Shown piece by piece: positions 18,031-32,506 of a stretch of DNA of 64,000 nucleotides. Location of the stretch: contig JADLHA010000015.1 of assembly GCA_020848995.1 (NCBI GenBank), forward strand, positions 9,229-73,228. The letters are read 5' to 3'. This DNA is from Saprospiraceae bacterium (GTDB lineage: Bacteria; Bacteroidota; Bacteroidia; Chitinophagales; Saprospiraceae). The notes under the pieces are model-generated. The model was not told the origin of the DNA. It saw only the letters and a list, made by a program, of their open reading frames with translations, and searched no databases. Numbering within the stretch: the first letter of the stretch is position 1; every line of letters begins with the position of its first letter. The translations under genes were made by a program, and so were the position numbers.

Positions 18031-20076
18031 CTACTTGACGCGGATCACTTCGCTGAATTCACTTTGCCATCCATCATCATTGATCACTTTGATGCGGTAA
18101 CGCATAGAATCTGCTAGCGTGTTGTACCTCTCGCGATACTCCGTTTTAGCCTTCAGCACTTTGTGGGTAATAAACGACTGGCCCTTTATCGAACGATAAA
18201 GCACGAAGGTCTGCTGCTGCTTGTTTGGATAGTTCCAATAAAGTGACACTTGCTTCCTGCTGGTATCTACTTCGACGACAACTTTGGAAACGGCTTTCAG
18301 GGTTTTATCGAGATAAGCCCTCATGGCCAGAACCGAGAGCCTGCCGGAACGTAGACCCGCATCGTCTTCAGCCTCCATGGTGTATTCATAGGTCTCCCCG
18401 GGTTTCAGGTCCTTATCCAGGTATTGGCCCGCAGGCAAGGTAGAAGGACAATCAAATACCGGTACAAAGGACTGCTCACCCCGCTTCCTGCGCAGCAGGA
18501 AGTTACGCCTGACATCGTGCGAAGAACTGTTATTCCATCTTATCAAATTGCCATTCTTGTCAGATACGGAGCTGGTAAAAACGGGAGCGCTCGGCGGCAC
18601 CAGATCCGGCTTTCTCAGGTGGAGCACCTTTGAATACTGCGAATAATTTGACCGGTGGTCAATCGCCACAAGTTTATAGTAAATGTCTTCGGTCAGCACA
18701 TTGAGCGGCAGGGTGTCGGTCCAAAAGGTATCCCGCAATGGCTCGCCTGTCCGGTTGATGTATGTTTGTTTGGGGTGATTGCTGGAATGAACGTAATACC
18801 CTTTTAGGTCGGGTTCGGGGCCGAGTTTCCACGACAGGGTCACCACGCCGTTGGTGTCGACAGACCCTGTAACGCCTTCGGGTGCCGAGGGTGGAATGCT
18901 GTCGATGATCGTGCCGTAATTGGGGAAGGTTACGTTGACGTTGTTTTCTGCGTCAAATACTCCTATCCAATAGTAATTGTTGATCATTTCATTGCAGGTC
19001 GAATCAATGTAACTCCTCGCTTGCTTGGGCAGAGGCCCACGGGTAATTTCGACAAATTCCTTTTGCTTTTCGTTCGATTTTGAAATGCGGAACCCCTCGA
19101 TATCCTGCTGAGCTACCCGCCAGCTGATCTTCATCAATCCATTGCCTAGGTACTCAAAACGCACATCGGTGGGAGGATCCGGAGGCGTGCGGTCGCGACC
19201 CTGAGCATGAATCACGTCCGAAATTGGGCCCCGGGTTCCAAAGGAAGTAAGTCCTTCGATCCGGTAAGCTGCAGGCTGGTAGTTTTCGGTCAGCGAGTCC
19301 CGGTAAATGAAGTAGTCGCTTTTTTTATATCCGGTGAAAGCAACCGGAGCACCATTTAACTTTTCCCACTTCTGATTCTTCTCATTCAGACGGTACACGT
19401 TGAACGCACTGTAAAACTGTTTGTAAATGTCGCGCTTCCACAATAGTTCTACTTTGCGCTCACCTTCGTTCACTGTGTCGACTAAGACCTTGGGATAGTC
19501 AGTGGGCTCAGCGGTCAAAGCAAAAACAGCTCCTGAAACCTTTTCGGTACGTGGGCTTACCCTGTACAAATAATGCTCGCCGGCAATGGCACTAGCATCT
19601 TCAAAACGCAGCGCAGAAAAAATTGCAGCGTCTCGACTGTACTCTGCTGCCAGTACACAGGCGGCGTAAAGGTTACTGAGTTCGGCACTTTTATCCTGCA
19701 AAGACTTTATGGAAAACTCTTTGGGCGTGAGTTTTCCGTGAATGGCCTGCCCAGCTACCATCAGAAAGGTATCCTTCGGGTTGGATTTCACCTTGCGCCG
19801 CCAGCTTTCCAGGGATTGCGGCCGAAGGCTGTCTGCAAGCGTTGTCCATTGGATCCCTTGTTCGGTTCCCTGCCGGAACACCGCGCGCTCAACCTTGTAG
19901 CCGTAGTAATTGCAAAGCCGCCAGGAACCCGGTGAGGAGTGCGCCCAGCGCAAAACCACCCCGTGCCCTTCGAGATAACTTCCCGAAAGTTGGATCGAAA
20001 AACGAACCGTATCCTCCTGGGCCTGGGCAGCTTGGACAATTGCCAGAATCATCATCAGGACTCTAAGTGCTTGCAT
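18031..20076 (-). CDS. Secreted multi-fibronectin-type-III domain protein
   Basis: It has a signal peptide (MQALRVLMMILAIVQAAQAQ). At least three FN3-like modules are introduced by Pro-rich linkers (TPPDPPTDVRFEY, IPPSAPEGVTGSV, VPPSAPVFTSSV). It is the last gene of the cluster. Confidence 0.75.
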   Translation of the reverse strand: MQALRVLMMILAIVQAAQAQEDTVRFSIQLSGSYLEGHGVVLRWAHSSPGSWRLCNYYGYKVERAVFRQGTEQGIQWTTLADSLRPQSLESWRRKVKSNPKDTFLMVAGQAIHGKLTPKEFSIKSLQDKSAELSNLYAACVLAAEYSRDAAIFSALRFEDASAIAGEHYLYRVSPRTEKVSGAVFALTAEPTDYPKVLVDTVNEGERKVELLWKRDIYKQFYSAFNVYRLNEKNQKWEKLNGAPVAFTGYKKSDYFIYRDSLTENYQPAAYRIEGLTSFGTRGPISDVIHAQGRDRTPPDPPTDVRFEYLGNGLMKISWRVAQQDIEGFRISKSNEKQKEFVEITRGPLPKQARSYIDSTCNEMINNYYWIGVFDAENNVNVTFPNYGTIIDSIPPSAPEGVTGSVDTNGVVTLSWKLGPEPDLKGYYVHSSNHPKQTYINRTGEPLRDTFWTDTLPLNVLTEDIYYKLVAIDHRSNYSQYSKVLHLRKPDLVPPSAPVFTSSVSDKNGNLIRWNNSSSHDVRRNFLLRRKRGEQSFVPVFDCPSTLPAGQYLDKDLKPGETYEYTMEAEDDAGLRSGRLSVLAMRAYLDKTLKAVSKVVVEVDTSRKQVSLYWNYPNKQQQTFVLYRSIKGQSFITHKVLKAKTEYRERYNTLADSMRYRIKVINDDGWQSEFSEVIRVK

Positions 20077-20089
20077 CGGGCATTGCAGT

Positions 20090-23000
20090 TTAGTTGTACA
20101 TAAAGGTTAAGGTAGCCTGGCTGCCATTCCGGTCCTGTCCATTTTGATCAGGATATAAATATTGTATTCCGATGACCTCTCTGCCCTTCGCAGCCCGCAT
20201 GTGATCGACCATCTGGACGCTCCGGCTTCTTCCAATGTGCTGATTAAAAAAAGATTGCTGACTGCTTGTCATCATATCATAGGTATTGATCCGGGAACTA
20301 CCTCCTGCAAAACTAACGGTTGTTTGTGCATGCGCAAAGTTGACCAGTGCCGTGCGGAGCTGCCGGTAATGTTCAACCCCCTGTATGTGGGGTTCGTAAT
20401 CAATCTGCGTGGTCCGGTTCGCGATTGCATTGCCCGGCAGTCCGGATGGGATTCGGAGCCTGTTCGCAAACAGGAGACTGTAATCCAGACCACTGACACC
20501 AGGTGAAGCAATGATCTCGGTAAACGCATCCTGCACTTCCCCGGAAGAAAGGGCTTGCAGATAATAGGATGCGGAATTGATCTTAACGCGGGAAGAATAG
20601 GGTTCCATCCCACTGATCCCCTCCAGTTCCGGGCAGCTGATCCGGTGCCCCGGATTGGATGACTGGTATTTTCTCAACAAGTCAGCGCGGTGAAGACCTG
20701 CACTCGCATATACATGCAGTATTTTGGGCATGGTGACCTCCATCAGGTAGCGGCTCACTGGGAAGAGGGTTGCCCTGCTGCGACCATCCAGGATGTCAGG
20801 TGGAGCTTGCAATACGAAGTCTACCCTTTTTGAGAATTCGATGGCATTTCTATTGGGCACCACCTTGAATGAGGAAACATCTACCCACTCAAAGCTCTCT
20901 GCCATCTCCTTCTTCACCCTGCCCAGGTCGTATCCTAAAAAATTGACGTTTTCATATCTCCAGTTGCTCTGTTCGCTTTCCATTTTCTCTCGCATGGTCA
21001 AAAACCGCGAAGTCCTGAAAAAATAAGAAAACAACTCAACTTCGTACCTCTGCACCTGTCCTGATGGCAATTGAATGCGCTTGTACTGGGTGGATCTCAC
21101 GGTGCTGTTGCCGATGGTGTGTGCAAAGTTGACAACTTGCAACGACCGGTCCGTGCGGGACGGATCGATGCGGGGTCTGGTGAGTTCGCGCGACGCCGCT
21201 TCTGAAATGTTGAGATCGCTTATGGGCTGGTCCTTCCTTATGATCTGGATGCAATATATTTTATCCCGCAACAGATGGGAAACATTAAAAATTACACCCT
21301 TTGCCTGAAGCATCACCCGCACGGGAACATTGGTCACCTGGCCATCCTCATCGGTGAAGCGCGCATAAAATGTTGTGCGCACGTTGCTGACATCCCCTTC
21401 CTTCAGACATCGGTTGTCGGTCTGTCGACAACGGATATAACCTTCGTTGTCTTGGGTCTCTCCTTTGAGAAAGTGTCTTTGGGAAATGTACGGATAGGTA
21501 AAGGACAGATTGTCATCAACAATCTTATCGGGTTCTTCTCCGGTGGTAAAATGGTGGATTTTTTCTTCGCGAAACACACTTCCCCGCACAAGAACGTCTC
21601 TGCCGTTTTCGCGCACGCGGGCTTCAACGCGAATGCTGTGTCTGGTTAACGACCGCAGCACAGCCAGCGGTACAAATGTATAAATGTGATTGGAGTCGGT
21701 CCAGCTTCCCGTACCGGTCAGATTGACACTGGTTCCTTCCCTGCGCAATTCAAAACTGTGCATATACGGTTGAAGTCTGCGGATCACCGGAGGGTCTACC
21801 GGGGACCCATACTCTTCGATTTCAAACGTCCTGTTCATTTCCATTGAAAAAGCAGCACTCACCTCCGTATAAACTGAAACGTCGTCGGCCCCGTCGGCCG
21901 GGCTGATGTCCTGAATGATCTGAATGCCGGAGAATGGGTTTCCCGTCACCACTTCACAAACGGTCCCTGCCTGGAGTACAAATTCGCAATCGCCTTGTGC
22001 CAAACCGTTGCAGACGTTGTAATAGAATCGTCCGCGGCCGGTAACCCACTCGGGCCTTGGCAGTCCGCCTCTGAGGATAATGGCCGCACAGGCTTGCAAA
22101 ATATTTACTTTGACCTCTTCAACAAAAAGGTTGATCTTAATTCCGAACGCACCTTCGATGCCTGCATAAAATTGACCGGTGGCGTACCAGCCGTCAATTC
22201 CCGGTTCCGTATCGGTTCCGGAACAGCGCCGGTCCATGTCCGGAGTTGCATGGGTCACATTGACATCAAAACCCATTACCGAAGTGAGGTTGAAGAAGAA
22301 GGGAAAGAATTCGATGTCACCGGTACTCATGACCATGGTCATGCCCATCGCAAAACCCACCCCCGATGGTGGTGCAGGCCGAGACCGGCCGGCCACCAAA
22401 TGATCGACGTCGCCATCGAGACTTTGCACGCGGTTCGGCGTTGCCTTGGCCCGCTCGAATATGCTAAGGAAGACAGAATCCGGCTCTGGCATGATGACGG
22501 GGATGCCGTGGCCGACCATCATATAATTGGTCACCCGGAGAAGTTCGATGGGTCCAATGGCCAATCTGACGCCACAGCGGTTGGTCGGGGTTCCCATATG
22601 GAAATACCATTCATCCTCTCCCGCGAAGAACTTTGCCCAAACAAGCGCATGCTCAGGTGTCCATCCCGTCGGCACGCTGTCCAATCTGCCAATGCCACCC
22701 AAGATCGGAGGATCCATGTCATATGGTACTTTGAGCTTCACAAAAAAGCATCCATCCAAAACCGTTGGTCCCCCTGGAGGCATGTTCAGGGTCATTCGCA
22801 CGTAGCCTGCAACGGGACTTCTGCCTTCCCTGCCAACCGTAGCGACGGAGATGCCATCCGACATCACGCGGAAAGATCCCCTGAAATCAAACATGGTGAG
22901 ACCGTGTGCGAAGCTGAATGTTGCGGTGAGGGTGACGTCGAGGTTGTAGGCCTTGCCCTGATCGTTTGACCCCAGCACCACCATAAATTTAAGGCCAAGG

Positions 23001-26000
23001 TCAGTGCCAAAATCAGGAACGTACCCATCTCTGGGAATTGCCCGGTTCGAACCTACAGCTGCTCCAGCTGTAGCCAGGACATCTCTTCCCTTTGGTAGAT
23101 TTCCCACCAAGTTCATGTGATGAAAGAATCCACCTCCGAGGCCATACAGGACGACCCCAGAAAACAAGGTGATGCCCGGGTTCAGAACGACCATTCCGTC
23201 TACTGAAAAATAGGAAAACCAGCTAGCAGTATTATAATTGGTCGCCCCAGGGAGTTTCCGGCATCCAAACTCAGCGTTGATATCAATACCCACCGTGATG
23301 CCGAGTTTGATCTCGAGCTGGATACCACCCTTTACCCCTTCGTCGATGGCGTCTTTGTAGAATTCGAGGTATCCGCTAAGCTTTAGATCAGACGCCTCAA
23401 CGCGCAAATCGATGCGCTCCAGATTAACGCCCGTTAAGTCAAAGCGCTGTGGTGAAGATAAGAGGTCCATGCTGATCAGGAGCGAGATCCTGGCTGACGC
23501 CGAAAAACCGCCCTCCCCCCCCGTAAGGGTAATCCTGGGTTTGATGGTAATGCGGTCATTTGAAATTCCAAAGCTGTCTAAGCCAATGGGGAATCCCGAC
23601 ATGGAGGATTCGCTTTCTCCTTCGGGCAGATACCAATCTGGATAGTTCAATTGCAGGAAATGAGAACCCCCACCTGATCTACCACCTGGTGAAGATCCGC
23701 CCAGACCCGTAAGAGAGTAATGAAATTCTCTCGTGTCGAAACCCGTCTCTGAATTGATTCTCAAATTCCTCACTTCGATGCCAGGCATGCTAAGGGTCGA
23801 TGGCATGCTTTGTCCCTCAGGCAGGTTGCTGTTGCCAATGCGCAAAACAGCGCTGAGGTTAGCCTCGATGTAATTGTGAGTGCCAAGCGATGCTTTGACA
23901 TAACTGTCGCTGCGGATAACGGCTTCTGCCATGGATATCGGTATACGGATGTTCTCAGCGGGACGGACGGAGATGACAAAATTGATGGAATCCTTTTGCT
24001 GGATACCCTCCGCATTTGTCCGTATGTTGAGTTCAGCCTGGTAGACCATATACTGGCTGGCTTCTGCAATGGGGATGCCCAGTTTGCCGTTAAAGCCCGC
24101 CCTCCGGAAATTATTCTGAATGATTTCAAGGTAAACGGTATCCAGAGAAGCAGCCCATCCGTTGAAGTTGCCATCTCCGTCCCAGCGCAGGATGTTTTCT
24201 GCGGCAGCCCGAAACGACAAACCTGTATGGTCTATAAAGATATTTCGGAATGCAAAGGTTAGCCGCCCACGATCCGGGCCTTGCAGGCGTTCCGGCGTGC
24301 GGACACTGACTTCCTCCATAAAAAATCCCTTCCAGGTATTGAAGACGTCTGGGCTGGCCAAGGCGGGGTGGGTGTATCCAGTGGGTAGGCAGGCCCGCAG
24401 GCGATCCGGATTTTCCAGATCGGAAAGATCGACCCAGCAGTTGTGTCCTGGCTGGAAGCCCCAGCCTTCCATGCCGGGAACCTGAAATGCGTCCATGTCC
24501 ATGCGAAGCATCAAGTGCCCGCCTCGCGTAATTCGACCGCCGAAGCGCGCCTCTACCTGACCTGAGGCCATGACTTCACCGGAAGCGTTTTCGGGCAGCA
24601 GCCATTCGCGCGTAAATCGAGCCGCACCAAAGAGGTTGAGCGCCCTGAATCCCTCGCAATCCCATTCTACAGAAGTCACCGTCGTGCGGTCGGGGTTTCC
24701 ATAAGCGCCCTTGATTCGAAATTCATTGTCATTCCCAAGAGGGAATACCTGGTCCTGCGGCAGATACAAGCGCACGTCGTTACCAAATCCATCGGGTGTA
24801 ATGCATACCTGCGCCCCGAGTGAAATAAACCCGTTGACAAACTCGAGGTTGGGAATGCGGATATTGACCACGAGGTCCATCGAAGCGGAGTCCTTCAACA
24901 CGCGCAGGTTCATCAGGCCTATTACAATCCGGGCACCTCCGATTTCCTTGTCGATGCCAATCGGGAGACTGACTTTGGAACCGGCGCTCAGCAGGCTGAG
25001 CAACTTTGAACCTGCCTCCAGCCCTGCTTCCATCGCATCGGCGGCCCCCTCATCCATGCCCAGCAGACGGCCCAGACCTGAAAGGTGTTCGGAAACCGGA
25101 AAAGCCTCCTCTATAACGGGCGTTAGCGTACCACCAATCATTTGCCGCGAAGCATTGATTTGAATACCGCTCAGCCTGAATTTAATTTTTACATTGTTTA
25201 AATAGCGGAGTTGCAAGTAACCAATACCTGTACCGGCAGACTCCAATGACTCCACTTCAACAGTAAATCCTGCAGCTGTAAAACTGCTTCCGGCAGAAAT
25301 GCTCCCTGAAGGTGTCGTTGAAGTGATTTCCGGAAACCTACAGGGAGAGGCACATGTACTCCGGCTCTCTTCCTCAGGAGTCTCTTCCCCGGACTCTGCC
25401 CGGATGTGGAATCGCCTGATCGGGCTGCTGTGGTAAAATTCGGAATTGCTAAAGTAAAACTCCTCTCGCTGCGAGTCTTCGGTAAGTGATTCGGGCACGT
25501 ATTGTGCCGGATCCAAGAGCCATAACACCCTCCAATAATAGTCTCCACTGTCAGACAGGACCTTTTCGCGATCGTTTACGACAAAAATTCCGGTCATCAG
25601 ATCCTCCACCGATGCAAAATTTCTTCCACCAATTCGAGCTGAAAATGCTCCGACAATGCTGTCCGCAACAAAACGCTCAGAGGTCGAAATCTGAAGTACC
25701 CATCGCTCATCGACTTCACCGTAATAACTGGCATCCTCGATGGTGCGACCGTGCATGCGCAACAGATAAAACACGTCGGGAAAAGAATTTGCGGGCAAAG
25801 CCCCGTTATCCCAACGAAATTCTACGGATCCGGGATCCACCGTAGCGCCATTAGCAGGGCTTACCAATCCGGGAATGGGCATTCCGGATACAAAATTGCT
25901 TTGCAGGACAAATGGATGAACGACTCCGTCATCCATCGTCATCCTCACATCAGCGGCTGCACGATTGGCCCTTGCTCTTTGAAACGCTGGCGTATTCCAG

Positions 26001-27244
26001 GTATCATTTAACATGAATCTTCTGGCCCGCTCCTCGCTGGCGTCACTGATTCCCTGGTTGATGAGGTATTGCAGCGGTCCGCCCGTGGTCCAGCGCAAAT
26101 CGTCGCTGCGGTTATACCGGTTTGTACCGGACGCAGGATCGACCAGGTTGACGGTGTACTCCAGCCTGCGGTACTCCGGACAATAAGGGTCGAATTCAAT
26201 CATCAAGGGCAGCATCGAAAACGGCAGGGTGTCGTTTTCAGAGGGAAAGTAAAAGGCGCACCTTGGAGCCGTGCAATCACCTATTGAAAATTCCTCGGAG
26301 ATGCAACCGGAATAATTTTCCACATCATCCGTCTCCGCTTCCTCTCCTTCCTCCGGTCGCGATAAATAATAAAACCGGACGATGTTGCTGTTACCCCGGT
26401 CGACAAACATCAAACGCCCATCCGGGTCAAATGCAGTCACAAAAGCAATGTACTCATGCCCCTCAGTCATCAAAAGGTCAATTCCCCCTCTCAAAACGGC
26501 CATAGCCTGTTGCGTTTCCTGCTGATAGGTTCCCGCAAGGTTGAGGTCGTAGACTTCATCGATGTAGAAGGCCAAATCGTTTTCAGTAGCATCGATCACA
26601 TTCAGCCGGTAGGTCATCCTGGAACGATCTGCCGGGGGCACTGCACTGATGTCGTGCATCCAGGCGATGGTGAAGATTTCGCTGACCACCTCTTCATCGG
26701 AAGGCATTACGATTTGCGGCCGTTCGATGAAACTCACCGTAAAATCGGCACATCCTGTTGAGGGATCTGAAATGAGGTTACCCGCTTCGTCGATCGCGGA
26801 AAAACAGATGGTATAATCGCCATCCGGTATGGCATGATGCAGATCGATGGCATTGAGTTGTTCATCTGTCAGGTTGTTGGTGTTTTCAAATCCACCCGTA
26901 GATGACCCGAGATCGCTCAATTGGTTTCCATTAAACATCCGCGTCTGGAAACCGGTGATCTCGAGCGGCTCCCCCAGGTATTGAATGTTAGCCTCTATGC
27001 CACTCGGGCCTGTGATCCGGGCCATAAATCTGAAGCGATATGTACTTCCCGTGGTATTTTGAATGGTAATGAAGACGTTTGACAAATCGTCAACGTAAAA
27101 GTCAAGGTCACTGGAATAGGGCGGGGTGATCACGGTATTGACGGTCAACTGAGCTGTGACCCGCTCCGTGCCGATAGATACCCAAAAAATCACCGGAAGC
27201 GTTGCTAAAATCAAACATCTGGTTTGCCATTGAAAATAATGCAT
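20090..27244 (-). CDS. Giant secreted protein (~2,384 aa) of unknown function
   Basis: The ORF is uninterrupted from 20090 to 27343. I prefer the internal ATG 27244 because it yields the signal peptide MHYFQWQTRCLILATLPVIFWVSIGTERVTAQ. The N-terminus reads as beta-sandwich-like modules. I see no catalytic motif and no T9SS CTD. Confidence 0.8.
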   Translation of the reverse strand: MHYFQWQTRCLILATLPVIFWVSIGTERVTAQLTVNTVITPPYSSDLDFYVDDLSNVFITIQNTTGSTYRFRFMARITGPSGIEANIQYLGEPLEITGFQTRMFNGNQLSDLGSSTGGFENTNNLTDEQLNAIDLHHAIPDGDYTICFSAIDEAGNLISDPSTGCADFTVSFIERPQIVMPSDEEVVSEIFTIAWMHDISAVPPADRSRMTYRLNVIDATENDLAFYIDEVYDLNLAGTYQQETQQAMAVLRGGIDLLMTEGHEYIAFVTAFDPDGRLMFVDRGNSNIVRFYYLSRPEEGEEAETDDVENYSGCISEEFSIGDCTAPRCAFYFPSENDTLPFSMLPLMIEFDPYCPEYRRLEYTVNLVDPASGTNRYNRSDDLRWTTGGPLQYLINQGISDASEERARRFMLNDTWNTPAFQRARANRAAADVRMTMDDGVVHPFVLQSNFVSGMPIPGLVSPANGATVDPGSVEFRWDNGALPANSFPDVFYLLRMHGRTIEDASYYGEVDERWVLQISTSERFVADSIVGAFSARIGGRNFASVEDLMTGIFVVNDREKVLSDSGDYYWRVLWLLDPAQYVPESLTEDSQREEFYFSNSEFYHSSPIRRFHIRAESGEETPEEESRSTCASPCRFPEITSTTPSGSISAGSSFTAAGFTVEVESLESAGTGIGYLQLRYLNNVKIKFRLSGIQINASRQMIGGTLTPVIEEAFPVSEHLSGLGRLLGMDEGAADAMEAGLEAGSKLLSLLSAGSKVSLPIGIDKEIGGARIVIGLMNLRVLKDSASMDLVVNIRIPNLEFVNGFISLGAQVCITPDGFGNDVRLYLPQDQVFPLGNDNEFRIKGAYGNPDRTTVTSVEWDCEGFRALNLFGAARFTREWLLPENASGEVMASGQVEARFGGRITRGGHLMLRMDMDAFQVPGMEGWGFQPGHNCWVDLSDLENPDRLRACLPTGYTHPALASPDVFNTWKGFFMEEVSVRTPERLQGPDRGRLTFAFRNIFIDHTGLSFRAAAENILRWDGDGNFNGWAASLDTVYLEIIQNNFRRAGFNGKLGIPIAEASQYMVYQAELNIRTNAEGIQQKDSINFVISVRPAENIRIPISMAEAVIRSDSYVKASLGTHNYIEANLSAVLRIGNSNLPEGQSMPSTLSMPGIEVRNLRINSETGFDTREFHYSLTGLGGSSPGGRSGGGSHFLQLNYPDWYLPEGESESSMSGFPIGLDSFGISNDRITIKPRITLTGGEGGFSASARISLLISMDLLSSPQRFDLTGVNLERIDLRVEASDLKLSGYLEFYKDAIDEGVKGGIQLEIKLGITVGIDINAEFGCRKLPGATNYNTASWFSYFSVDGMVVLNPGITLFSGVVLYGLGGGFFHHMNLVGNLPKGRDVLATAGAAVGSNRAIPRDGYVPDFGTDLGLKFMVVLGSNDQGKAYNLDVTLTATFSFAHGLTMFDFRGSFRVMSDGISVATVGREGRSPVAGYVRMTLNMPPGGPTVLDGCFFVKLKVPYDMDPPILGGIGRLDSVPTGWTPEHALVWAKFFAGEDEWYFHMGTPTNRCGVRLAIGPIELLRVTNYMMVGHGIPVIMPEPDSVFLSIFERAKATPNRVQSLDGDVDHLVAGRSRPAPPSGVGFAMGMTMVMSTGDIEFFPFFFNLTSVMGFDVNVTHATPDMDRRCSGTDTEPGIDGWYATGQFYAGIEGAFGIKINLFVEEVKVNILQACAAIILRGGLPRPEWVTGRGRFYYNVCNGLAQGDCEFVLQAGTVCEVVTGNPFSGIQIIQDISPADGADDVSVYTEVSAAFSMEMNRTFEIEEYGSPVDPPVIRRLQPYMHSFELRREGTSVNLTGTGSWTDSNHIYTFVPLAVLRSLTRHSIRVEARVRENGRDVLVRGSVFREEKIHHFTTGEEPDKIVDDNLSFTYPYISQRHFLKGETQDNEGYIRCRQTDNRCLKEGDVSNVRTTFYARFTDEDGQVTNVPVRVMLQAKGVIFNVSHLLRDKIYCIQIIRKDQPISDLNISEAASRELTRPRIDPSRTDRSLQVVNFAHTIGNSTVRSTQYKRIQLPSGQVQRYEVELFSYFFRTSRFLTMREKMESEQSNWRYENVNFLGYDLGRVKKEMAESFEWVDVSSFKVVPNRNAIEFSKRVDFVLQAPPDILDGRSRATLFPVSRYLMEVTMPKILHVYASAGLHRADLLRKYQSSNPGHRISCPELEGISGMEPYSSRVKINSASYYLQALSSGEVQDAFTEIIASPGVSGLDYSLLFANRLRIPSGLPGNAIANRTTQIDYEPHIQGVEHYRQLRTALVNFAHAQTTVSFAGGSSRINTYDMMTSSQQSFFNQHIGRSRSVQMVDHMRAAKGREVIGIQYLYPDQNGQDRNGSQATLTFMYN

Positions 27245-27323
27245 TATACATTTATAAATACGAACAAACGTTCGTTCTCTTTTACCTTTAATAGAACACA
27301 TTTCAGAGAATGCATCCCTTCGA

Positions 27324-29039
27324 TCATAGTGGATTGCTTCCATGCTGCCTGTTTTGAAAGAGGGAATAATTCAAATTGATAGATAATCGCAAGTCATTAA
27401 ATTTGGATGTCACCAAAGAAGACTTGTCGAGATAGGCCAGCGACGTGGTGACCGCAATTGCCGGTGTAATGGCAAACCCACAATTTAATGAAAAATTCAC
27501 GGTTTTTCCGTCATCGTGCTCGCCTGCTTTGAGAAGATAGTAGCCACCGGCTGCTCTGAATGATAATTTTGGCGCATCAAAATTTTTACTAAAACTCAGA
27601 TTTGCGCCGGATCGACGCTGCTCACCCTGTTCGAATTGCTCCGTTCCGGTGATCAGGCCCAACGTCATACTCGCTTTGAGTAAGCGCGCCTGTACATTAT
27701 AGTTCAGACCGTAGTGGATTACCTTTCCGGTTCCAAATGCAGAGGCAACAGGGCTAACGTCTTCGAGCTCGCTTTGCTGATAGGACAGTCCCAACTGATG
27801 AGGCCATCTGGTGTTTCCGAACTTTATCTGCGGGCTGAGTTGGATAACGGCTGTATTCCGCACCAGCCGGAATGTATCATTGAGCTGAGCAATTCCGGGC
27901 GACTGGTCCATTGTAAAATTGGAAAAGGAGCCCTGTAGAGCAAAGTTTTTGTGAGGAGCCAGCATTGCGTTGGCACTTAGAATCGTTTTTTTGGAAGTAT
28001 TCCTCCGGATGCTGTTCAGATTGCTGGTCTGCCATCCGGACACCGTATTCAATACCAGCTTGTTCTTCCAAACTCGGAGACCAATGCGGAGGGTGATGTC
28101 TTCCACATCATCCTGAATGTAATGCATCCCAAAACTACGGTAATTGGGATCGATGTGTTTGAACACGACTCCAACGTTGAAGAAGCGGTGGTTGTATTTC
28201 AAAGAAGCATCGTATGCCAGGTTGGCGCGAGTGGTGTTGTTGGTCGTCATAAAGGGATCGACGAAAATCTGAATATCCCGGCTTCGCTTATCCTGCAGGC
28301 TGTCCTCCCTGGCCAGTTGATTGTTCGTCAACGTTGAGAGATCTGCATTGACCTCAAACTGGAAGCCCTGCAAAAAAGCGAATTTTCCCCTTGCCCCCAG
28401 CACCAGATTTTCAGCAGGAGCAAAAATGGTTCGGTTGATCAATGTATCGGTATTTGCAATGTAATCATCCTTAGCCTTTAAAAAATGAAGGTCGATGTGT
28501 CTTCGCTCCTTACCAAAACCCAGATTGATGCCGTATATACTGCGGCGATAATCCTGGATAAGGTGGGAATAGAATGCCAGGGAATCCAGATGGTAATTAG
28601 GGGTCTTTACCGTTCCATACATTCCGGAAAAGCGGAATAAACCCGGGGTCATTTCCACCCCTGCGCCCAGAAATGTGATTCCGTTGAGCGAATAATTGCT
28701 GAATTGCATCACGCGATGGCCCAGATGGAGTTTGACCCAGCGATACGATGGACTCAGCCCGAACCTGACAAAAGGGTTGGAAAATCCCGCAGTAAAGCGA
28801 CCCGTTCGAAAGGTGAGGTGGATCGGTATCTGTATGGTAAAAAGCTCCAGATTTCCGCGGAAGCTGGCGAGATATCCCGAAGAATTCACTTCCGCTGTAT
28901 CCCTAGTCTGGTAGCTTCCGTTATACGAAAGACTCAGGTATGCACTTTTTTTGAACAGATTTCCTTTTCTAAAAGAGCTGATGTCCTGGGAGCCAACAAG
29001 ACACGGAAGAAGTACAAACAAGCATACTGTAAATCGCAT
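27324..29039 (-). CDS. Predicted outer-membrane beta-barrel protein (571 aa)
   Basis: It has a signal peptide (MRFTVCLFVLLPCLVGSQ). Amphipathic beta-strand periodicity runs the whole length, and an aromatic-terminated segment LSINLNYSLF lies near the C-terminus. I recognise no POTRA, plug or OmpA domain. Confidence 0.6.
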   Translation of the reverse strand: MRFTVCLFVLLPCLVGSQDISSFRKGNLFKKSAYLSLSYNGSYQTRDTAEVNSSGYLASFRGNLELFTIQIPIHLTFRTGRFTAGFSNPFVRFGLSPSYRWVKLHLGHRVMQFSNYSLNGITFLGAGVEMTPGLFRFSGMYGTVKTPNYHLDSLAFYSHLIQDYRRSIYGINLGFGKERRHIDLHFLKAKDDYIANTDTLINRTIFAPAENLVLGARGKFAFLQGFQFEVNADLSTLTNNQLAREDSLQDKRSRDIQIFVDPFMTTNNTTRANLAYDASLKYNHRFFNVGVVFKHIDPNYRSFGMHYIQDDVEDITLRIGLRVWKNKLVLNTVSGWQTSNLNSIRRNTSKKTILSANAMLAPHKNFALQGSFSNFTMDQSPGIAQLNDTFRLVRNTAVIQLSPQIKFGNTRWPHQLGLSYQQSELEDVSPVASAFGTGKVIHYGLNYNVQARLLKASMTLGLITGTEQFEQGEQRRSGANLSFSKNFDAPKLSFRAAGGYYLLKAGEHDDGKTVNFSLNCGFAITPAIAVTTSLAYLDKSSLVTSKFNDLRLSINLNYSLFQNRQHGSNPL

Positions 29040-29061
29040 ACCTTTCAGTGCTCAGTCGAAT

Positions 29062-30012
29062 CTATCTACTCCGTCTGGGTGGGGCCGGATCGGCAACTCC
29101 GAGATGGTCTCTGATAATACTTCTCAACCATATAGGGAATGGGTGTCCATACGGGTTGACTAACTTACCGGGTATTGCGGGGTCTGGCGTCCGGTTCTCC
29201 GCATCAAACCAAACGCCATCTGGTTCGTACTGGGCTCCGCCTCTGGAGCGCCAGTTTTTCCTGAAATGATAGGAGGCAATGCCCTGAGCAATCACCTCAC
29301 TTGGACCGCGGCTATCTCCTCTGTAATAATATACCGTTCTACCATCTCTGGTATAGCTTGAATTCAGGTAATCCTGGAATTGATCTCGGTATTCAGGAAG
29401 ATTTCCATAATGTTCCGCCAATTGAAATTCCCTGTCTACAAAATGTCCTATCTCGTGCAGTAGGGTAATGCGAACGTTCGTTCGTTCTTCCCGGTCGAAT
29501 GCCATCGGATGAAGGGTGATGACATCATAAAGGTCATTTCTCCTTACGCAACGCCTTGCACCCCCTCCTATACTGTGACCATCTCCGTCCTTGCTATCGC
29601 GCCTTCCCGGACGACTCGGAGCCAGCGCCCCCGTCAGGGGAACTGCAATCCGGAAATTCACCGGCAATGCTGGCAGGTAGTTTTCCGGCAGCACCGCCAT
29701 GACTTCACGGATCACGTCAAGTTGATCCGAGGTAATATTGTAAAAACGGAAAGTGCGCCCCCGGATATTTTCTTCAATGAGTTCACCCCAGATGGTAGAG
29801 ATGTTTTCCTGGCCGGCATTTTCTTCGATGCACAATACCCTGCGGGCATTCATGACGTAACAACATTGGCAACCTTCACTTTCGCAATTGGAGACCAGTC
29901 TCGCAACGCGCGTGGGGCGTTCCTGTCGGCGGGGCTCGGGGTCATCTTGCGCAAACAGCGTGGGCACGTTACAAAAGGTGTAGGCCACCAGGATCAGGAG
30001 TACCCCTTTCAT
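29062..30012 (-). CDS. Secreted HExxH zinc metallopeptidase-like protein
   Basis: It has a signal peptide (MKGVLLILVAYTFCNVPTLFAQ) and the zincin motif TLLHEIGHFVDREF. Its start codon overlaps the stop of the upstream collagen-like gene (ATGA). Confidence 0.7.
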   Translation of the reverse strand: MKGVLLILVAYTFCNVPTLFAQDDPEPRRQERPTRVARLVSNCESEGCQCCYVMNARRVLCIEENAGQENISTIWGELIEENIRGRTFRFYNITSDQLDVIREVMAVLPENYLPALPVNFRIAVPLTGALAPSRPGRRDSKDGDGHSIGGGARRCVRRNDLYDVITLHPMAFDREERTNVRITLLHEIGHFVDREFQLAEHYGNLPEYRDQFQDYLNSSYTRDGRTVYYYRGDSRGPSEVIAQGIASYHFRKNWRSRGGAQYEPDGVWFDAENRTPDPAIPGKLVNPYGHPFPIWLRSIIRDHLGVADPAPPRRSR

Positions 30013-31928
30013 GGTTTCCGGGATTCAAGTTCAGCAATGCGCCTTTCGAGTTTTTGGATCAACTCTTGTTGCTCCTGAATGGCTTTGACGAGGAAAGGCG
30101 TGATCTCCGAATAATTTACCGCATAGCTCTGCTGCACTGGAGAAGACCTCTCGCCACCTTCCCGTTTCGAAACGCTCACCTCTGGCTTTCGAACGACTTC
30201 GGGAAGGACGTTTTCGAGTTCCTGGGCAAGAAAGCCCGTATGCAGGTAGGTATCGCCCTCTTTCCAATGGTAGGACACAGGCTTCATCCGCATCACTTTA
30301 TCCAATGCAGACCCAAGGGGTTGGATGTTCTTTTTTAAACGGGCATCAGAGGTTTGGTTGAGTCCGTTTACGCTCCATATTTCAGACCACCGGTAATTGC
30401 TCGATCCCAGCCGGGTCATATTGTGGAAATTCGGACCGAATTCGGTGGTTGCATGGAAATAACCCACATGGCCAATGCCATTTACCGTAAAGGTCAGCGA
30501 GTTGTTGTTGCCTTTCATCCCGGCCCCGGTGGCACTAAACCGCAGTTCGTTTGTCAAAATGCGGAGTCCCTGGTATTCAATGCCTCCTGCAACAGGAGTC
30601 CAGGGATTGCTGTCCTTATCGGGTGCTGCTTCCCACTGCTGGTTATTAAATGGGAACCATTTCAAAACGTAGCCTTGGGTAGGGGCCTGCGCGCTCACCG
30701 GTTTGCCCTGCAATTGGATGGCGTTCCAGAGTGCGCTGGTATTTTGGGCACTGATCACATTGGAAGCAATCGCAATTCCAGTACCCGCCGTGTAGGTCCC
30801 GGGAGGGCCGGGAGGGCCTTGAGCTCCCTGAGGCCCAATGGGGCCCGTGGCGCCCTGTGGACCCGTAGCACCCTGGGGACCTGTGGCACCCTGTGGACCC
30901 GTGGCGCCCTGTGGGCCAGCCGTCCCTTGTGGTCCCTCAGGCCCTTGGATCCCTGCCGGGCCAGTTGGCCCCTCCTGTCCCTGTGGACCCTGAGCGCCCG
31001 TTTCTCCCTGGGGGCCCTGGATTCCCTGTGGTCCCTGAGGGCCGGCGGGACCTTGAATTTGCCCGATTGCCGTCCAATCGGTCCCATTCCAGACATGACC
31101 AGTACCGGTATCTTCCGCAATGAACATATCCCCAACATTGCCTCCGTAATTCGCATCAAGGCTGTCCACACTGGGTACGGTTCCAATGATCATGACGCCG
31201 GAACCATCCTCACCGGGTTCCCCTTGAGGCCCTTGAAGGCCTTGAGGGCCGGCAATGCCTTGTTCTCCCTGAATGCCTTGTTCTCCCTGTATCCCCTGTG
31301 GGCCGGCGGGTCCCTGTGCACCCTCATTGCCGGCGGGTCCCGGGTCGCCTTTGGGACCTTGAGGTCCTGCCGGACCAGTCTCCCCCTGCGGACCAGGGAT
31401 TCCCTGTGGGCCGGGGTCTCCTTTGATTCCCTGCTCGCCCTGCAAACCTTGTATCCCCTGAGGTCCCTGCATGCCCACTGCTCCCGCTGGCCCGGTCTCT
31501 CCCTGGATCCCCTGCGGACCCGGCTCCCCCTTATCCCCATTTTCTCCCTTAGGACCGGTAAATGCTGCGCTGTTCACCAAAGACTGGCCGAGGTCCTGGT
31601 AGTTGCCATTTGGCCCGTCGGCACATTGTACACTGAGGTATCTGGGGCCTGCATTCCAGTCAATGGCGCCGATGTCGCCTTGCTCCACCACCCCGCTTCC
31701 AACAAGAACCGATAAAAACCCATAGGCATCCGTTACAGGTTCCTGCCGCTCCCGGTATAACACATCATTTGCCAACCGGTCGGTACTGATAATAAATTTC
31801 AGGTAAACGATCTGGTTTGCCAGAGCTTTACCCGTACCATCGCGCACGATCGACTGGTAATTAAAACCCTGACCGTAAAGTCCTGCATTGCACAGCAGCA
31901 CAATTAGAGCAAAGGCTATTTTTCTCAT
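30009..31928 (-). CDS. Collagen-like triple-helix repeat protein with a C-terminal tail-fibre / peptidase S74 intramolecular chaperone domain
   Basis: ATG 31928 gives the signal peptide MRKIAFALIVLLCNAGLYGQ. There are two G-X-Y runs, 40 triplets at nt 31197-31556 and 28 triplets at nt 30801-31052. The C-terminus carries SDARLKKNIQPLGSALDKVMRMKPVSYHWK...YSEITPFLVKAIQEQQELIQKLERRIAELE. Confidence 0.85.
   Translation of the reverse strand: MRKIAFALIVLLCNAGLYGQGFNYQSIVRDGTGKALANQIVYLKFIISTDRLANDVLYRERQEPVTDAYGFLSVLVGSGVVEQGDIGAIDWNAGPRYLSVQCADGPNGNYQDLGQSLVNSAAFTGPKGENGDKGEPGPQGIQGETGPAGAVGMQGPQGIQGLQGEQGIKGDPGPQGIPGPQGETGPAGPQGPKGDPGPAGNEGAQGPAGPQGIQGEQGIQGEQGIAGPQGLQGPQGEPGEDGSGVMIIGTVPSVDSLDANYGGNVGDMFIAEDTGTGHVWNGTDWTAIGQIQGPAGPQGPQGIQGPQGETGAQGPQGQEGPTGPAGIQGPEGPQGTAGPQGATGPQGATGPQGATGPQGATGPIGPQGAQGPPGPPGTYTAGTGIAIASNVISAQNTSALWNAIQLQGKPVSAQAPTQGYVLKWFPFNNQQWEAAPDKDSNPWTPVAGGIEYQGLRILTNELRFSATGAGMKGNNNSLTFTVNGIGHVGYFHATTEFGPNFHNMTRLGSSNYRWSEIWSVNGLNQTSDARLKKNIQPLGSALDKVMRMKPVSYHWKEGDTYLHTGFLAQELENVLPEVVRKPEVSVSKREGGERSSPVQQSYAVNYSEITPFLVKAIQEQQELIQKLERRIAELESRKP
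30844..30917. repeat. 18-bp tandem repeat x4 encoding (GPQGAT)4 inside the collagen-like gene
   Basis: The units are cccgtggcgccctgtgga, cccgtagcaccctgggga, cctgtggcaccctgtgga and cccgtggcgccctgtggg. A second 18-bp doublet (aatgccttgttctccctg x2) lies at 31253-31288. Confidence 0.8.
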
Positions 31929-31939
31929 TGTAGAAATGA

Positions 31940-32422
31940 TTATGGGTTGACGATTACTTTGGAAAAGAGTTCCCGGCCAGAGCGGCTCAGCAAACGAACC
32001 ACGTAACACCCTGGAGGCAAGGCGGATGTTTCAAAACTGGTAGCTCCCGGTTGTATACGAGGCGCTTTACCGTAAAGATCGTTGAGTACAATGATGTACT
32101 CCCGGATGCCTCCCACTGAAAAGTACAGGCGTTCAGAAGCCGGATTGGGAAAAACTTCAAAAAAAATTGCTTCGGATTCGCCTTCAACGGCAGTAATGAC
32201 GGGGTCAGGCGTAAATGGAGATTCAAACCGGAGACCATTGCAATGACCATAAGCAGGAACCAGGATCCCGGTATTGCTTTGGAAAGTCAATTTACCGCAT
32301 TGTCCTACAAAGTAAGATGTAGACTGAAACCCTGTCAACCTGCACTGCGCTTGCAAAGGAGTCGTCGTAACTAATAACAGCCATGCCAGGATCGGAATGG
32401 GCATTTTGCACATCTCTCTCAT
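31940..32422 (-). CDS. Small T9SS cargo protein (signal peptide, ~60-aa Cys-containing domain, type A C-terminal sorting domain)
   Basis: The CTD reads FFEVFPNPASERLYFSV...CYVVRLLSRSGRELFSKVIVNP. The signal peptide is MPIPILAWLLLVTTTPLQAQ. The start is ambiguous among ATG 32422, 32413 and 32404. Confidence 0.7.
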   Translation of the reverse strand: MREMCKMPIPILAWLLLVTTTPLQAQCRLTGFQSTSYFVGQCGKLTFQSNTGILVPAYGHCNGLRFESPFTPDPVITAVEGESEAIFFEVFPNPASERLYFSVGGIREYIIVLNDLYGKAPRIQPGATSFETSALPPGCYVVRLLSRSGRELFSKVIVNP

Positions 32423-32427
32423 ATGCA

Positions 32428-32435
32428 CAAAAATA
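32428..32435 (-). promoter_or_regulatory. Candidate -7 box (TATTTTTG) ahead of the structural genes
   Basis: It matches TAnnTTTG on the minus strand. It lies downstream of the kinase-stop hairpin and just upstream of the possible starts 32413 and 32404. Confidence 0.25.
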
Positions 32436-32469
32436 CCTTTGACTGTCTTGCTATAAAAAATCAGCACAC

Positions 32470-32506
32470 CACATGATGATGCATCCAATTGTCACATCAT
32501 CATGTG
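32470..32506 (-). promoter_or_regulatory. 12-bp perfect inverted repeat (hairpin) straddling the histidine-kinase stop codon
   Basis: CACATGATGATG (32470-32481) pairs with CATCATCATGTG (32495-32506) across a 13-nt loop that contains the TGA stop. On the minus strand a T6 run follows 9 nt after the stem. Confidence 0.5.

Follow-up and report, generated by a model that had tools for sequence, protein, structure and literature searches.

A giant Saprospiraceae protein of the TANFOR class with an all-β core, encoded between a predicted outer-membrane β-barrel and a multi-Fn3 protein

TANFOR-containing proteins, the closest described relatives of the protein reported here, have been proposed as polymorphic toxins of the Bacteroidetes whose export route is unknown (Jana, Salomon and Bosis, 2020; PMC7073777). 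In that study, whose data comprise 339 TANFOR proteins, the class is marked by Sec signals and Fn3-enriched neighbourhoods, more than 95% of the TANFOR-encoding genomes possess a T9SS, and export by the T9SS is only speculated on. Its supplementary table places a domain-less protein of 562-576 aa upstream and a protein of 670-711 aa downstream, as at the locus described here. A TANFOR protein of T. forsythia appears in a table of proteins identified in EV/OMV fractions (PMC10682907). Searches of the literature library available returned no later paper on TANFOR export and, for the giant family itself, papers on the T9SS and on gliding, none of them about the family.

Large proteins paired with a β-barrel are also known from other systems, and several of their features recur at the present locus. 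Two-partner secretion (type Vb; FhaC/FHA, CdiB/CdiA) shares with it a ~570-aa barrel gene beside the gene of a giant Sec-dependent exoprotein, one cognate barrel per passenger, and a conserved N-terminal module followed by variable functional ends. SprB with SprF (sprCDBF operon), representing the T9SS adhesins with PorP/SprF-type barrels, belongs to the same phylum and likewise has the gene of a giant surface protein beside those of a dedicated outer-membrane barrel and accessory proteins. TamA-TamB and LptD-LptE resemble the locus in that a barrel is paired with a large β-rich partner, and for LptD there is in addition a weak 3Di-level resemblance to the giant.

The window analysed here, the whole stretch of 64 kb, contains the giant gene as one unbroken ORF on the minus strand with its stop at 20090, so that the single 7.2-kb ORF recognised in an earlier sequence-only reading is borne out. 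What appears to be new is the conserved trio to which it belongs, consisting in gene order of a putative ~570-aa outer-membrane β-barrel, the giant and a ~700-aa multi-Fn3 protein:

27324-29039, minus strand: cognate predicted outer-membrane β-barrel, 571 aa, with signal peptide; the family consensus ends in Y-x-x-x-F
20090-27343, minus strand: giant gene; its longest ORF opens with the ATG at 27343 and encodes 2,417 aa
18031-20076, minus strand: cognate multi-Fn3 protein, 681 aa, with signal peptide (Pfam fn3, E=1.4e-6); its gene begins 13 nt past the giant's stop

The 7.2-kb gene is real and encodes an exported protein of 261 kDa. The ORF is intact and full-length in more than 12 relatives at 48-93% identity, many of them Saprospiraceae MAGs; by sequence comparison the gene is under constraint, and no characterised family matched the protein confidently over its full length. 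The start codon given earlier (27244, yielding 2,384 aa) is probably 99 nt too far downstream, and 27343 is preferred because the ATG at 27244 reads ACG in a 90%-identical relative (L001), while the ATG at 27343 is kept there and gives a 20-nt overlap with the stop end of the barrel gene, which other relatives show too. With either start the mature protein is the same, with 2,353 aa, 261 kDa and a pI of 5.0; all residue numbers below are counted from 27244. A scan for σ70 promoters and terminators gave results at chance level, and the consensus may not fit the host lineage. The N-terminus is a Sec-type signal peptide with the h-region CLILATLPVIFWVSIG followed by VTA/Q, and Q32 is invariant in the alignment of the 16 sequences first found (A1). 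The protein can be divided as follows:

27152-27244, minus strand: signal peptide, residues 1-31, from the sequence, with a predicted SPase I cut at VTA/Q
26345-27148, minus strand: N-module, residues 33-300; the first half (~33-175) is a divergent, TIGR02542-like TANFOR domain, the second half is Fn3-like
25403-26344, minus strand: variable region, residues 301-614, holding a P-x-N-G...FRW...YYWRV module and missing in several family members
23675-25402, minus strand: core N-half, residues 615-1190, from AF2 model 1 and conservation
23657-23707, minus strand: Gly/Ser-rich linker joining the core halves, residues 1180-1196, pLDDT <50 in both models
21920-23656, minus strand: core C-half, residues 1197-1775, from AF2 model 2, pLDDT mostly 85-93
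20765-21919, minus strand: C-terminal β domains, residues 1776-2160, from AF2 model 2, Ig-like (Big_5/CopC-like) at 1777-1879
20093-20764, minus strand: C-terminal α/β domain, residues 2161-2384, from sequence comparison and model 2, with no family match

The sequence-only reading had described the last ~1,700 aa as rich in Gly, Ser and aromatic residues; for Gly, this is right for residues 651-1790, the only Gly-rich part (12.2% G), and wrong for 1791-2384 (5.7% G). The peptides it quoted lie at residues 459, 1306 and 1363. The net charge of the giant is -80, the conserved cysteines are C631/C635, C863, C1674 and C1763, and the residues invariant in the family alignments are nearly all Gly, Pro or aromatic. 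Depletion of Lys was dropped as a family trait, being lineage-specific. The signal peptide, cysteines, charge, Gly/Pro/aromatic invariants, all-β structure and binding modules of relatives together mark the giant as an extracytoplasmic, structural protein. A motif scan detected no HExxH, Walker A, LPXTG, YD or RGD motif in it, there are no DNA tandem repeats in the gene, and self-BLAST gave no internal protein repeats; for HExxH, Walker, LPXTG and tandem repeats this agrees with what had been noticed from the letters alone. That the protein has no recognisable motif holds for catalytic, anchoring and sorting motifs, none of which was found, and fails for the divergent N-terminal TANFOR domain, which had been overlooked. 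Searches of Pfam, NCBIfam, PHROGs and PADLOC returned nothing besides a weak Big_5, and PDB sequences gave zero matches at E<=10 with the single sequence and with three profiles.

Two relationships suggested earlier for the N-terminal part did not hold. The likeness of one module to the metalloprotease at 50960-54607 comes to 11/18 residues and lacks significance (E=0.034 when the two sequences are compared), and homology was dropped; the supposed repetition of modules within the first ~650 aa amounts to motif-level similarity in profile-profile comparison, and internal repeats in the N-terminal 615 aa were likewise dropped (hhalign best E=2.8e-4 over 24 residues, four segments compared).

The core N-half opens with a CxxxC (C631, C635) and a small β "junction" domain (~630-710), which is found apart from the core, together with TANFOR, in other proteins; the remainder of this half is all-β with short strands. 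In AF2 model 2 the core C-half consists of about 25 long antiparallel β-strands of 10-21 residues. It carries the most conserved motifs of the family, YGLGGGF.HHM and NGWYA.GQ.YAG, and patterns of this half served in the genome scan for relatives. The giant is all-β in both AlphaFold models of the core, whose overall pLDDT (core and C-terminal parts) is 65 and 77. Foldseek, run with both models on the PDB and with model 2 also on BFVD, gave TM <=0.28 for everything beyond one Ig domain, so that the structure prediction proposed at the outset, carried out for the core and the C-terminal domains, leaves the core apparently without a real structural neighbour in either collection. Outer-membrane barrels head the match lists of both models, at very low TM, which could mean that the giant is itself membrane-embedded. 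The Ig-like domain matches CopC (TMt 0.74), and its Big_5 match at residues 1777-1879 is sub-threshold and recurs in 4 of 10 members. The α/β domain (2161-2384) is the least conserved part in close relatives and is absent from many distant ones.

The giant is tied to the TANFOR-containing proteins of Jana et al. (2020) because residues ~33-175 form a divergent TANFOR domain, and on this evidence it is a divergent member of that class of large Sec-exported proteins. The curated model TIGR02542 (cut-off 67 bits) detects three repeats at 111.8 bits in the full-length homologue P0184 of Chryseolinea serpens, and finds nothing in the giant, either in residues 1-700 at E<=1 or in the full protein at E<=0.01. 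Positions 3-141 of the N-module family HMM nevertheless align to the three TANFOR repeats of P0184 with iE from 1e-16 to 1e-61, and in blastp residues 36-164 of the giant match residues 185-309 of P0184 (E=1e-7). Homologues of the giant carry the TANFOR annotation in their source records, and one of them, WP_073141964.1, appears in the TANFOR protein list of PMC7073777. Further traits shared with the class are the large size, the Sec signal peptide with a TANFOR-type domain right after it, the Fn3 protein directly downstream, a T9SS-CTD protein in the operon, and the lack of an assigned secretion system. The giant differs from the class in escaping TIGR02542, in having neither a C-terminal toxin domain nor an immunity gene, and in consisting mostly of a conserved core of ~1,500 aa; neither this core nor the barrel is mentioned in the Introduction and two Results sections of PMC7073777. 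The core family also reaches beyond Bacteroidota, to Ignavibacteriota, Chlorobiota and Rhodothermota.

The giant had been treated as singular, and a word-indexed homologue search, which gave just 16-20 proteins (the same 20 again with a diverse alignment of 24 sequences), made its family seem tiny. It belongs instead to a family of thousands of clusters: the core profile (residues 615-1790) matches 3,716 protein clusters at E<=1e-3 and 1,917 at E<=1e-30, and core relatives occur in at least 358 species representatives from the four FCB phyla just named. The locus indicates that a very large part of the TANFOR class is built around this undescribed all-β core. The family is accessory, multi-copy and patchily distributed. 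Its longer members bear LRR, DUF285 or LamG binding modules, others are core-only giants of 1.46-1.5 kaa (L073, L082, L083), and in two loci of a short type (L080, L088) the core protein has no TANFOR and a separate protein with TANFOR and junction domains is encoded just downstream. A fragmented giant copy lies near a deaminase-domain gene on a Bergeyella plasmid.

The sequence-only reading had noticed a barrel encoded immediately upstream and had linked the giant to it. The 571-aa protein does look like an outer-membrane β-barrel, with a signal peptide, about 26-30 alternating amphipathic segments along the chain, no hydrophobic helix, and a C-terminal aromatic β-signal in its family (consensus ...Y-x-x-x-F at the C-termini of 52 relatives; YSLF plus a 10-residue tail in the window copy). 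Six of these 52 relatives match OMP_b-brl (best E=1.8e-4), with further weak matches to DUF2490, DUF481 and OMP_b-brl_3; profile searches of the PDB gave no match for the barrel. The linkage proved near-universal across relatives: of the 72 loci whose flank is long enough, 59 have a barrel directly upstream and 64 have one at some position in the locus, and where the downstream DNA suffices, 69 of 70 loci carry an Fn3 homologue. Genomes with two giants hold two full trios (L029/L078; L077/L084). Judged by gene content, the barrel follows the all-β core and not the TANFOR domain, because the core-only giants keep a barrel beside them while a TANFOR-only protein has none on its 12.4-kb contig. 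The overlap of the barrel and giant genes suggests translational coupling, and this overlap together with co-occurrence of barrel and core over four phyla is what one would expect of a partner dedicated to export or anchoring; from the synteny we infer that the giant may pass through the barrel. A supposed homology between the giant and the Fn3 protein was rejected, since a single fused ORF, in L033, had linked the two in clustering.

The known systems differ from this trio in several respects. Two-partner secretion has a TPS domain, POTRA and a ShlB-type barrel signature, for which (Haemagg_act, POTRA, ShlB) Pfam gave no match in the giant or in the 571-aa protein, and no POTRA/Omp85 feature or other such match was found in the 52 barrel relatives at E<=1; the giant is not a β-helix, its barrel correlates with the central core rather than with the N-terminal domain, and an Fn3 protein is the third conserved component. 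Unlike the SprB/SprF-type adhesins, the giant has no T9SS CTD of type A (PF18962/TIGR04183) or type B (TIGR04131) at E<=0.01, nor have 10 relatives at E<=1; the absence of a CTD in Pfam and NCBIfam alike agrees with what had been read from the sequence. The 571-aa barrel does not match the PorP/SprF family. PorP/SprF proteins are about half its size. SprA/Sov gave no Pfam match to the giant, no PDB match even with profiles at E<=10, and no place among the top 50 Foldseek matches of either model. RHS/YD and Tc toxins were likewise absent, with no YD..G motif and no match in Pfam or NCBIfam, and the HMM searches that had been proposed for these families, SprA and TamB/AsmA/DUF490 were thus all negative. 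TamA-TamB and LptD-LptE are set apart by the lack of any sequence-family match (no DUF490 or AsmA in Pfam), by the cleavable signal peptide with its conserved A-Q site at the giant's N-terminus, by the accessory, multi-copy nature of the family and by TM <=0.2.

Upstream of the barrel gene, the trio is accompanied in the window by further genes:

29062-30012, minus strand: accessory secreted protein of 316 aa with a HEIGH motif; HExxH in 19/19 homologues
30009-31928, minus strand: accessory collagen-like trimeric fibre with signal peptide and a C-terminal Peptidase_S74 intramolecular chaperone domain
31940-32488, minus strand: small accessory protein that ends in a weakly matching T9SS sorting domain (Por_Secre_tail at E=2.5e-4, which falls short of the gathering score)
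32492-36634, minus strand: two-component system; histidine kinase of the Reg_prop kind at 32492-35785, response regulator of the LuxR type at 35978-36634

The HEIGH-motif protein is confined to Saprospiraceae-type cassettes. The fibre is present in 29 loci, a similar kinase/regulator pair adjoins the cassette in 29 loci, and the adjacent two-component system likely regulates it. The small protein probably starts at an internal ATG near 32404-32422, and its relatives in L003 and L008 have clean Por_Secre_tail matches. On the other side, beyond the Fn3 gene, lies a convergent SDR gene.

The reading that we favour, at a probability of roughly 0.45, is that the giant is a scaffold or adhesin displayed on the cell surface with the help of its barrel and independently of a CTD. 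It would represent a sub-type that joins a TANFOR module, at the N-terminus, to an all-β core of ~1,500 residues. The precursor would cross the inner membrane by Sec and be cut by signal peptidase I before Gln32, as its sequence predicts, and the core would then engage the cognate barrel in the periplasm or at the outer membrane, a physical interaction to which synteny and gene overlap point. Barrel and giant would probably be made in fixed proportion, because the barrel gene overlaps the giant's start codon. The barrel may serve as conduit, as anchor or as both, placing the giant on the surface without a T9SS C-terminal signal, and the Fn3 protein may accompany it in stoichiometric amount, as a chaperone or stalk in the periplasm or as a second subunit on the surface. 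Once displayed, the giant would act as structural scaffold or adhesin with its payload on the variable ends, which would be Ig/Fn3 here, LRR or LamG in the relatives that are longer, and toxins elsewhere among TANFOR proteins. Within the present Saprospiraceae operon its partner is probably the collagen-like fibre encoded alongside, with the adjacent two-component system in control. A broader version, more doubtful and put forward only tentatively, is that the trio is a hitherto unrecognised system of the FCB superphylum, dedicated to carrying TANFOR-class giants across the outer membrane or anchoring them there for display, independently of the T9SS C-terminal signal; in split loci such a system would also export separately encoded TANFOR effectors. 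The giant may also depend on the T9SS in some unconventional way, since more than 95% of TANFOR-encoding genomes have one (PMC7073777).

Other explanations account for parts of the evidence. It is unlikely, though suggested by the presence of TANFOR-annotated homologues in the list of Jana et al. (2020; PMC7073777), that the giant is a polymorphic toxin in their sense, with the TANFOR N-terminus delivering the α/β domain 2161-2384 as an unrecognised toxin to competitors or prey. The C-terminal ~230 aa do vary more than the rest among close relatives (33-46% identity vs 55-80% elsewhere), attachment to other cells is common among Saprospiraceae, and the fragmented Bergeyella copy has its deaminase-domain neighbour. 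This domain can, however, be aligned across orders, for example with Bacteroidales locus L036, and is therefore not subject to cassette-like replacement; Pfam and NCBIfam contain no toxin family matching the giant, no catalytic-looking invariant residues are seen in the family alignments, and downstream there is no small immunity-type ORF but the conserved Fn3 gene, followed by the convergent SDR gene. We give just as little credence to a core that is embedded in the outer membrane or spans the envelope as an analogue of SprA, and that together with the barrel and the Fn3 protein exports other proteins, namely TANFOR proteins encoded separately elsewhere and, at this locus, the CTD-less collagen fibre. 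Such a conduit would fit the long (17-21 residues), Gly/aromatic-rich antiparallel strands of the core C-half, the top Foldseek matches of both models (LptD, SlpA, OccD2, LamB, ushers), the short-type loci L080 and L088, where the core protein precedes a separate TANFOR protein like a machine before its substrate, and the signal peptides of the fibre and the HExxH protein, neither of which has a CTD. It is opposed by structural matches that all remain at TM <=0.28, with no closed barrel recognised even at pLDDT ~88, by several strands that are hydrophobic on both faces, by the lack of a universal C-terminal β-signal (many members end after the middle C-terminal domain), and by the strongly acidic giant and the adhesin-type modules of its relatives.

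Transfer of lipid or other hydrophobic cargo by a periplasm-bridging protein of the TamB/AsmA or LptD kind, paired with the barrel as TamB is with TamA, is very improbable: the barrel does precede the giant in gene order, the architecture is an all-β meander, and the low-score Foldseek matches include LptD, ApoB100 and vitellogenin, but the differences from these systems given above weigh against it, as do a cleavable signal peptide in place of an N-terminal membrane anchor and the Ig, LRR or LamG modules fused in relatives. The chance that the gene is an artefact of assembly or fusion, a pseudogene or a tail gene from a prophage is close to nil. The neighbouring fibre strongly resembles phage tail fibres, and the ORF is split in a few relatives (L028, L034, L039, L071, L087), but several split copies are from MAGs with "tig..." names that suggest long reads, where splits may be frameshift errors. 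The same full-length ORF occurs in independent assemblies, and the genes on its flanks have housekeeping roles and vary from lineage to lineage; no PHROG matched, and a phage origin was dropped after tblastn of 50,697 phage records gave zero matches.

In the favoured reading, surface display with the help of the barrel, the arrangement of the trio hints at a means, so far undescribed, by which giant proteins are put on the cell surface. The locus makes the question of TANFOR export concrete, namely whether the barrel, rather than the T9SS, puts the giants on the surface. If the trio does form the proposed system, it would explain how TANFOR proteins are exported, a point that Jana et al. (2020) left open, and with a barrel route a major bacterial group would have a new means of exporting its giant proteins or anchoring them; if that route is false, the core still ranks among the larger protein families that lack annotation. 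The trio occurs in cultured strains such as Chryseolinea serpens DSM 24574, Neolewinella agarilytica DSM 24740 and Marinigracilibium pacificum.

The giant gene is, as the sequence-only reading had proposed, a single long open reading frame (ORF). It lies on the minus strand and ends at 20090, but the start chosen in that reading, at 27244, is probably not the one used. That start gives a protein of 2,384 aa beginning MHYFQW, and the longest ORF, from the ATG at 27343, gives 2,417 aa. Because the position of the 27244 ATG reads ACG in a 90%-identical relative (locus L001), in which the upstream ATG is conserved, and because an ORF begun at 27343 shares 20 nt with the end of the upstream gene, stop codon included, an overlap of a kind also seen in relatives (17-26 nt), 27343 is favoured as the likely start. 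The protein sequence encoded by the 99-nt stretch between the candidate starts shows little conservation, but compensating indels preserve the frame in L001. An inverted repeat at 27260-27275 (ACGAAC AAAC GTTCGT; 6-bp stem, 4-nt loop) lies 16-31 nt upstream of the 27244 ATG. Whichever start is used, the mature protein is predicted to begin at Gln32 (numbered, like all residues here, from 27244) and to comprise 2,353 aa (261 kDa, pI 5.0). Family HMMs and conservation profiles partition it as follows:

Residues 1-31: signal peptide
Residues 33-300: N-module
Residues 301-614: dispensable variable region
Residues 615-1190: N-terminal half of the core, beginning with a CxxxC motif and a small "junction" β-domain
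Residues 1180-1196: Gly/Ser linker
Residues 1197-1775: C-terminal half of the core
Residues 1776-2160: β domains, an Ig-like domain among them
Residues 2161-2384: α/β domain, less conserved and missing from many members

The motifs originally reported as absent are indeed absent: a motif scan found no HExxH, Walker A, LPXTG or YD motif, neither tandem nor internal repeats were found, and Pfam and NCBIfam gave no T9SS C-terminal domain (CTD) and no other family except a sub-threshold Big_5 Ig-like match (residues 1777-1879). No relative was found by sequence search of the PDB. Other impressions fared less well, as the Gly richness ascribed to the C-terminal part holds for residues 651-1790 (12.2% G) but not for the final 600 residues, the supposed repeated N-terminal modules are four segments not recognisably repeats of one another, and the resemblance to the metalloprotease at 50960-54607 (11/18 residues, E=0.034) is not significant. 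Apart from a few Cys, nearly every invariant residue of the family is Gly, Pro or aromatic, which points to a structural rather than a catalytic role. AlphaFold2 models of residues 615-1790 (13 sequences; pLDDT 65, pTM 0.39) and 1197-2384 (25 diverse sequences; pLDDT 77, mostly 85-93 in the C-terminal half of the core) predict an almost wholly antiparallel β core, with about 25 strands of 10-21 residues in its C-terminal half.

A word-indexed protein search with the giant returned only 16-20 relatives, and a diverse alignment as input brought no wider reach. This count is misleading, since an exhaustive profile search with core residues 615-1790 retrieved 3,716 clusters with a cut-off of E<=1e-3 and 1,917 with one of E<=1e-30 (clustering at 50% identity). 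When a single genome of each species was scanned, relatives occurred in 358 species, including Bacteroidota (among them Saprospiraceae, Lewinellaceae, Chitinophagales, Flavobacteriales, Bacteroidales and Cytophagales) and, outside that phylum, Ignavibacteriota, Kapabacteria/Chlorobiota and Rhodothermus; cultured carriers include Chryseolinea serpens DSM 24574, Neolewinella agarilytica DSM 24740 and Marinigracilibium pacificum. Among genome matches, the nearest is a Saprospiraceae MAG (L026; 93% identity across the core). Longer relatives bear LRR, DUF285 or LamG binding modules in place of a toxin domain. A tblastn search of phage records found nothing, and plasmid and chromid records gave only two weak matches. 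The Bergeyella porcorum plasmid pQD2021 (L093; NZ_CP136427.1, 3081-22277) holds fragmented copies of the core gene, all annotated as hypothetical proteins, and two Fn3-protein genes, followed by a gene for a deaminase-domain protein.

Homologues of two proteins flank the giant in all the lineages that were examined:

27324-29039, minus strand: 571-aa protein, upstream of the giant gene
18031-20076, minus strand: 681-aa protein, downstream of the giant gene

Among loci with at least 2 kb of upstream DNA, the 571-aa homologue is immediately upstream in 59 of 72 and within the locus in 64 of 72; the 681-aa homologue occurs in 69 of the 70 loci with sufficient downstream DNA, and genomes with two giants hold two complete sets. 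The sequences of the 571-aa family suggest an outer-membrane β-barrel, with a signal peptide, about 26-30 amphipathic segments, no hydrophobic helix and a consensus C-terminus ...Y-x-x-x-F. Weak generic-barrel matches recur (OMP_b-brl in 6 of 52 members; also DUF2490, DUF481 and OMP_b-brl_3), and no specific transporter family was matched. The 681-aa protein, with a signal peptide, a single Pfam fn3 match (residues 300-343) and an Ig-like PHROG match (552-680), is read as a putative chain of Fn3/Ig-like domains. The barrel accompanies the core and not the N-module, since core-only giants of 1.46-1.5 kaa retain it (L073, L082, L083) and a protein with the N-module but without the core has none on its 12.4-kb contig. 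In a Lewinellaceae MAG (L033, 4977-10418), a single ORF of 1,814 aa encodes both the C-terminal part of the giant and the Fn3 protein. If genuine, this fusion would favour a 1:1 complex; alternatively, the assembly is wrong at the stop codon.

The C. serpens homologue is annotated at source as a "TANFOR domain-containing protein", and TIGR02542 (NCBIfam) matches it in three repeats with 111.8 bits (cut-off 67). The same model weakly matches the first domain of two further relatives and does not detect the giant studied here even at E<=1. The first ~140 positions of the family N-module HMM align to each C. serpens repeat, and residues 36-164 of the giant align with one of them (pairwise blastp, E=1e-7); residues ~33-175 are therefore a divergent TANFOR domain. 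The window contains no second TANFOR or core gene. At "short-type" loci, where the TANFOR module is missing from the giant, a second large protein that combines a TANFOR N-module with a ~90-aa junction domain is encoded nearby, either directly after the Fn3 gene (L080, 16325-21928; L088, 16124-19936), a layout like a machine followed by its substrate, or ~6.5 kb upstream of the core gene (L084, 1950-3329). TANFOR-containing proteins were defined by Jana, Salomon & Bosis (2020; PMC7073777), who counted 339 of them (in 5.8% of RefSeq Bacteroidetes genomes), ~87% with Sec signal peptides, in neighbourhoods enriched for Fn3, PKD, SprB and T9SS-CTD domains; the export route was considered unknown, with T9SS offered as speculation only. 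The Introduction and two Results sections of that paper do not discuss the barrel or the core. Rows of its Supplemental Data 1, including that of the C. serpens homologue, list upstream a protein of 562-576 aa with a signal peptide but no domain, and downstream one of 670-711 aa, and the trio is thus visible there (PMC7073777). Later work on TANFOR export did not turn up in a whole-word search of the literature. A T. forsythia TANFOR protein is tabulated among those identified in EV/OMV fractions (PMC10682907).

Our preferred reading, to which we assign a probability of roughly 0.45, is that the giant is a TANFOR-class structural scaffold or adhesin which its own barrel would bring to the outer membrane or hold there, without a T9SS C-terminal signal, the Fn3 protein being an obligatory accessory. 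We infer that the three proteins interact physically, that the giant passes through or is anchored in the barrel, and that it is exposed at the surface. An unrecognised C-terminal toxin is unlikely, as the C-terminal domain can be aligned across orders and is not cassette-swapped, the next gene, 13 nt downstream, encodes the conserved Fn3 protein and not an immunity protein, and neither Pfam nor NCBIfam detects a toxin domain. It is just as improbable that the core is itself a membrane conduit for other proteins, and a TamB-like lipid bridge is considerably less probable still. Foldseek searches of the PDB and BFVD with the giant models gave nothing above TM 0.28 except for one Ig domain, which matches CopC (TMt 0.74); the low-scoring matches, mainly outer-membrane barrels (LptD, SlpA, OccD2, LamB, ushers) and lipid-binding β-sheets (ApoB100), probably reflect the likeness of long β-meanders and not a fold assignment. 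That the giant is an artefact is hardly credible: a fusion artefact or pseudogene, either of which would have undermined the original proposal, is rejected, as hardly any locus has an interrupted ORF. Among the few loci where it is split are some in MAGs with contig names ("tig...") that point to long-read assembly, and the splits may be frameshift errors.

TANFOR giants as a kind have already been described, bioinformatically only. What appears to be undescribed is chiefly the module of cognate barrel and Fn3 protein, but also the sub-type that has the core and lacks a toxin, and how large the core family is and how many phyla it spans. That the trio represents a genuinely new system for export or anchoring is possible, though we regard it as less likely than not.

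In the Saprospiraceae-type cassette, three additional minus-strand genes lie upstream of the trio, preceded directly by a pair of regulatory genes:

32492-36634, minus strand: Reg_prop (β-propeller sensor) histidine kinase and LuxR-type response regulator
31940-32488, minus strand: small protein with a weak T9SS CTD
30009-31928, minus strand: collagen-like (collagen triple helix) fibre with a signal peptide and a C-terminal Peptidase_S74 intramolecular chaperone domain
29062-30012, minus strand: 316-aa secreted protein with a HEIGH motif

In 29 loci the cassette is accompanied by a comparable pair of kinase and regulator, which in some of them is of the LytTR or AraC type. The fibre, present in 29 related loci and without a T9SS CTD, has strong PHROG matches to phage tail fibres, and the model for the N-terminal domain of "mosaic adhesive trimer" (MAT) fibres of Bdellovibrio gives a weak match to its residues 41-109 (NF053851, E=6e-4). 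The 316-aa protein matched no family and is confined to Saprospiraceae-type cassettes; HExxH is conserved in 19 of 19 homologues, and the protein is a candidate metallopeptidase of small size. Intergenic gaps range from about -20 to +79 nt, varying with the start codons chosen. All six cassette products (18031-32488) have Gln right after the predicted signal peptidase I site (VTA/Q, AQA/Q, VGS/Q, LFA/Q, LYG/Q and LQA/Q, the slash marking the cut), which fits the Bacteroidetes "Q-rule" of pyroglutamate N-termini. The 316-aa protein has little Lys (K 1.3%) and much Arg (R 11.7%). The giant has a single lysine in residues 1-650 (K 1.8% and R 6.9% overall), a bias common to its close Saprospiraceae relatives and the T9SS metalloproteases of the window but not to distant family members.
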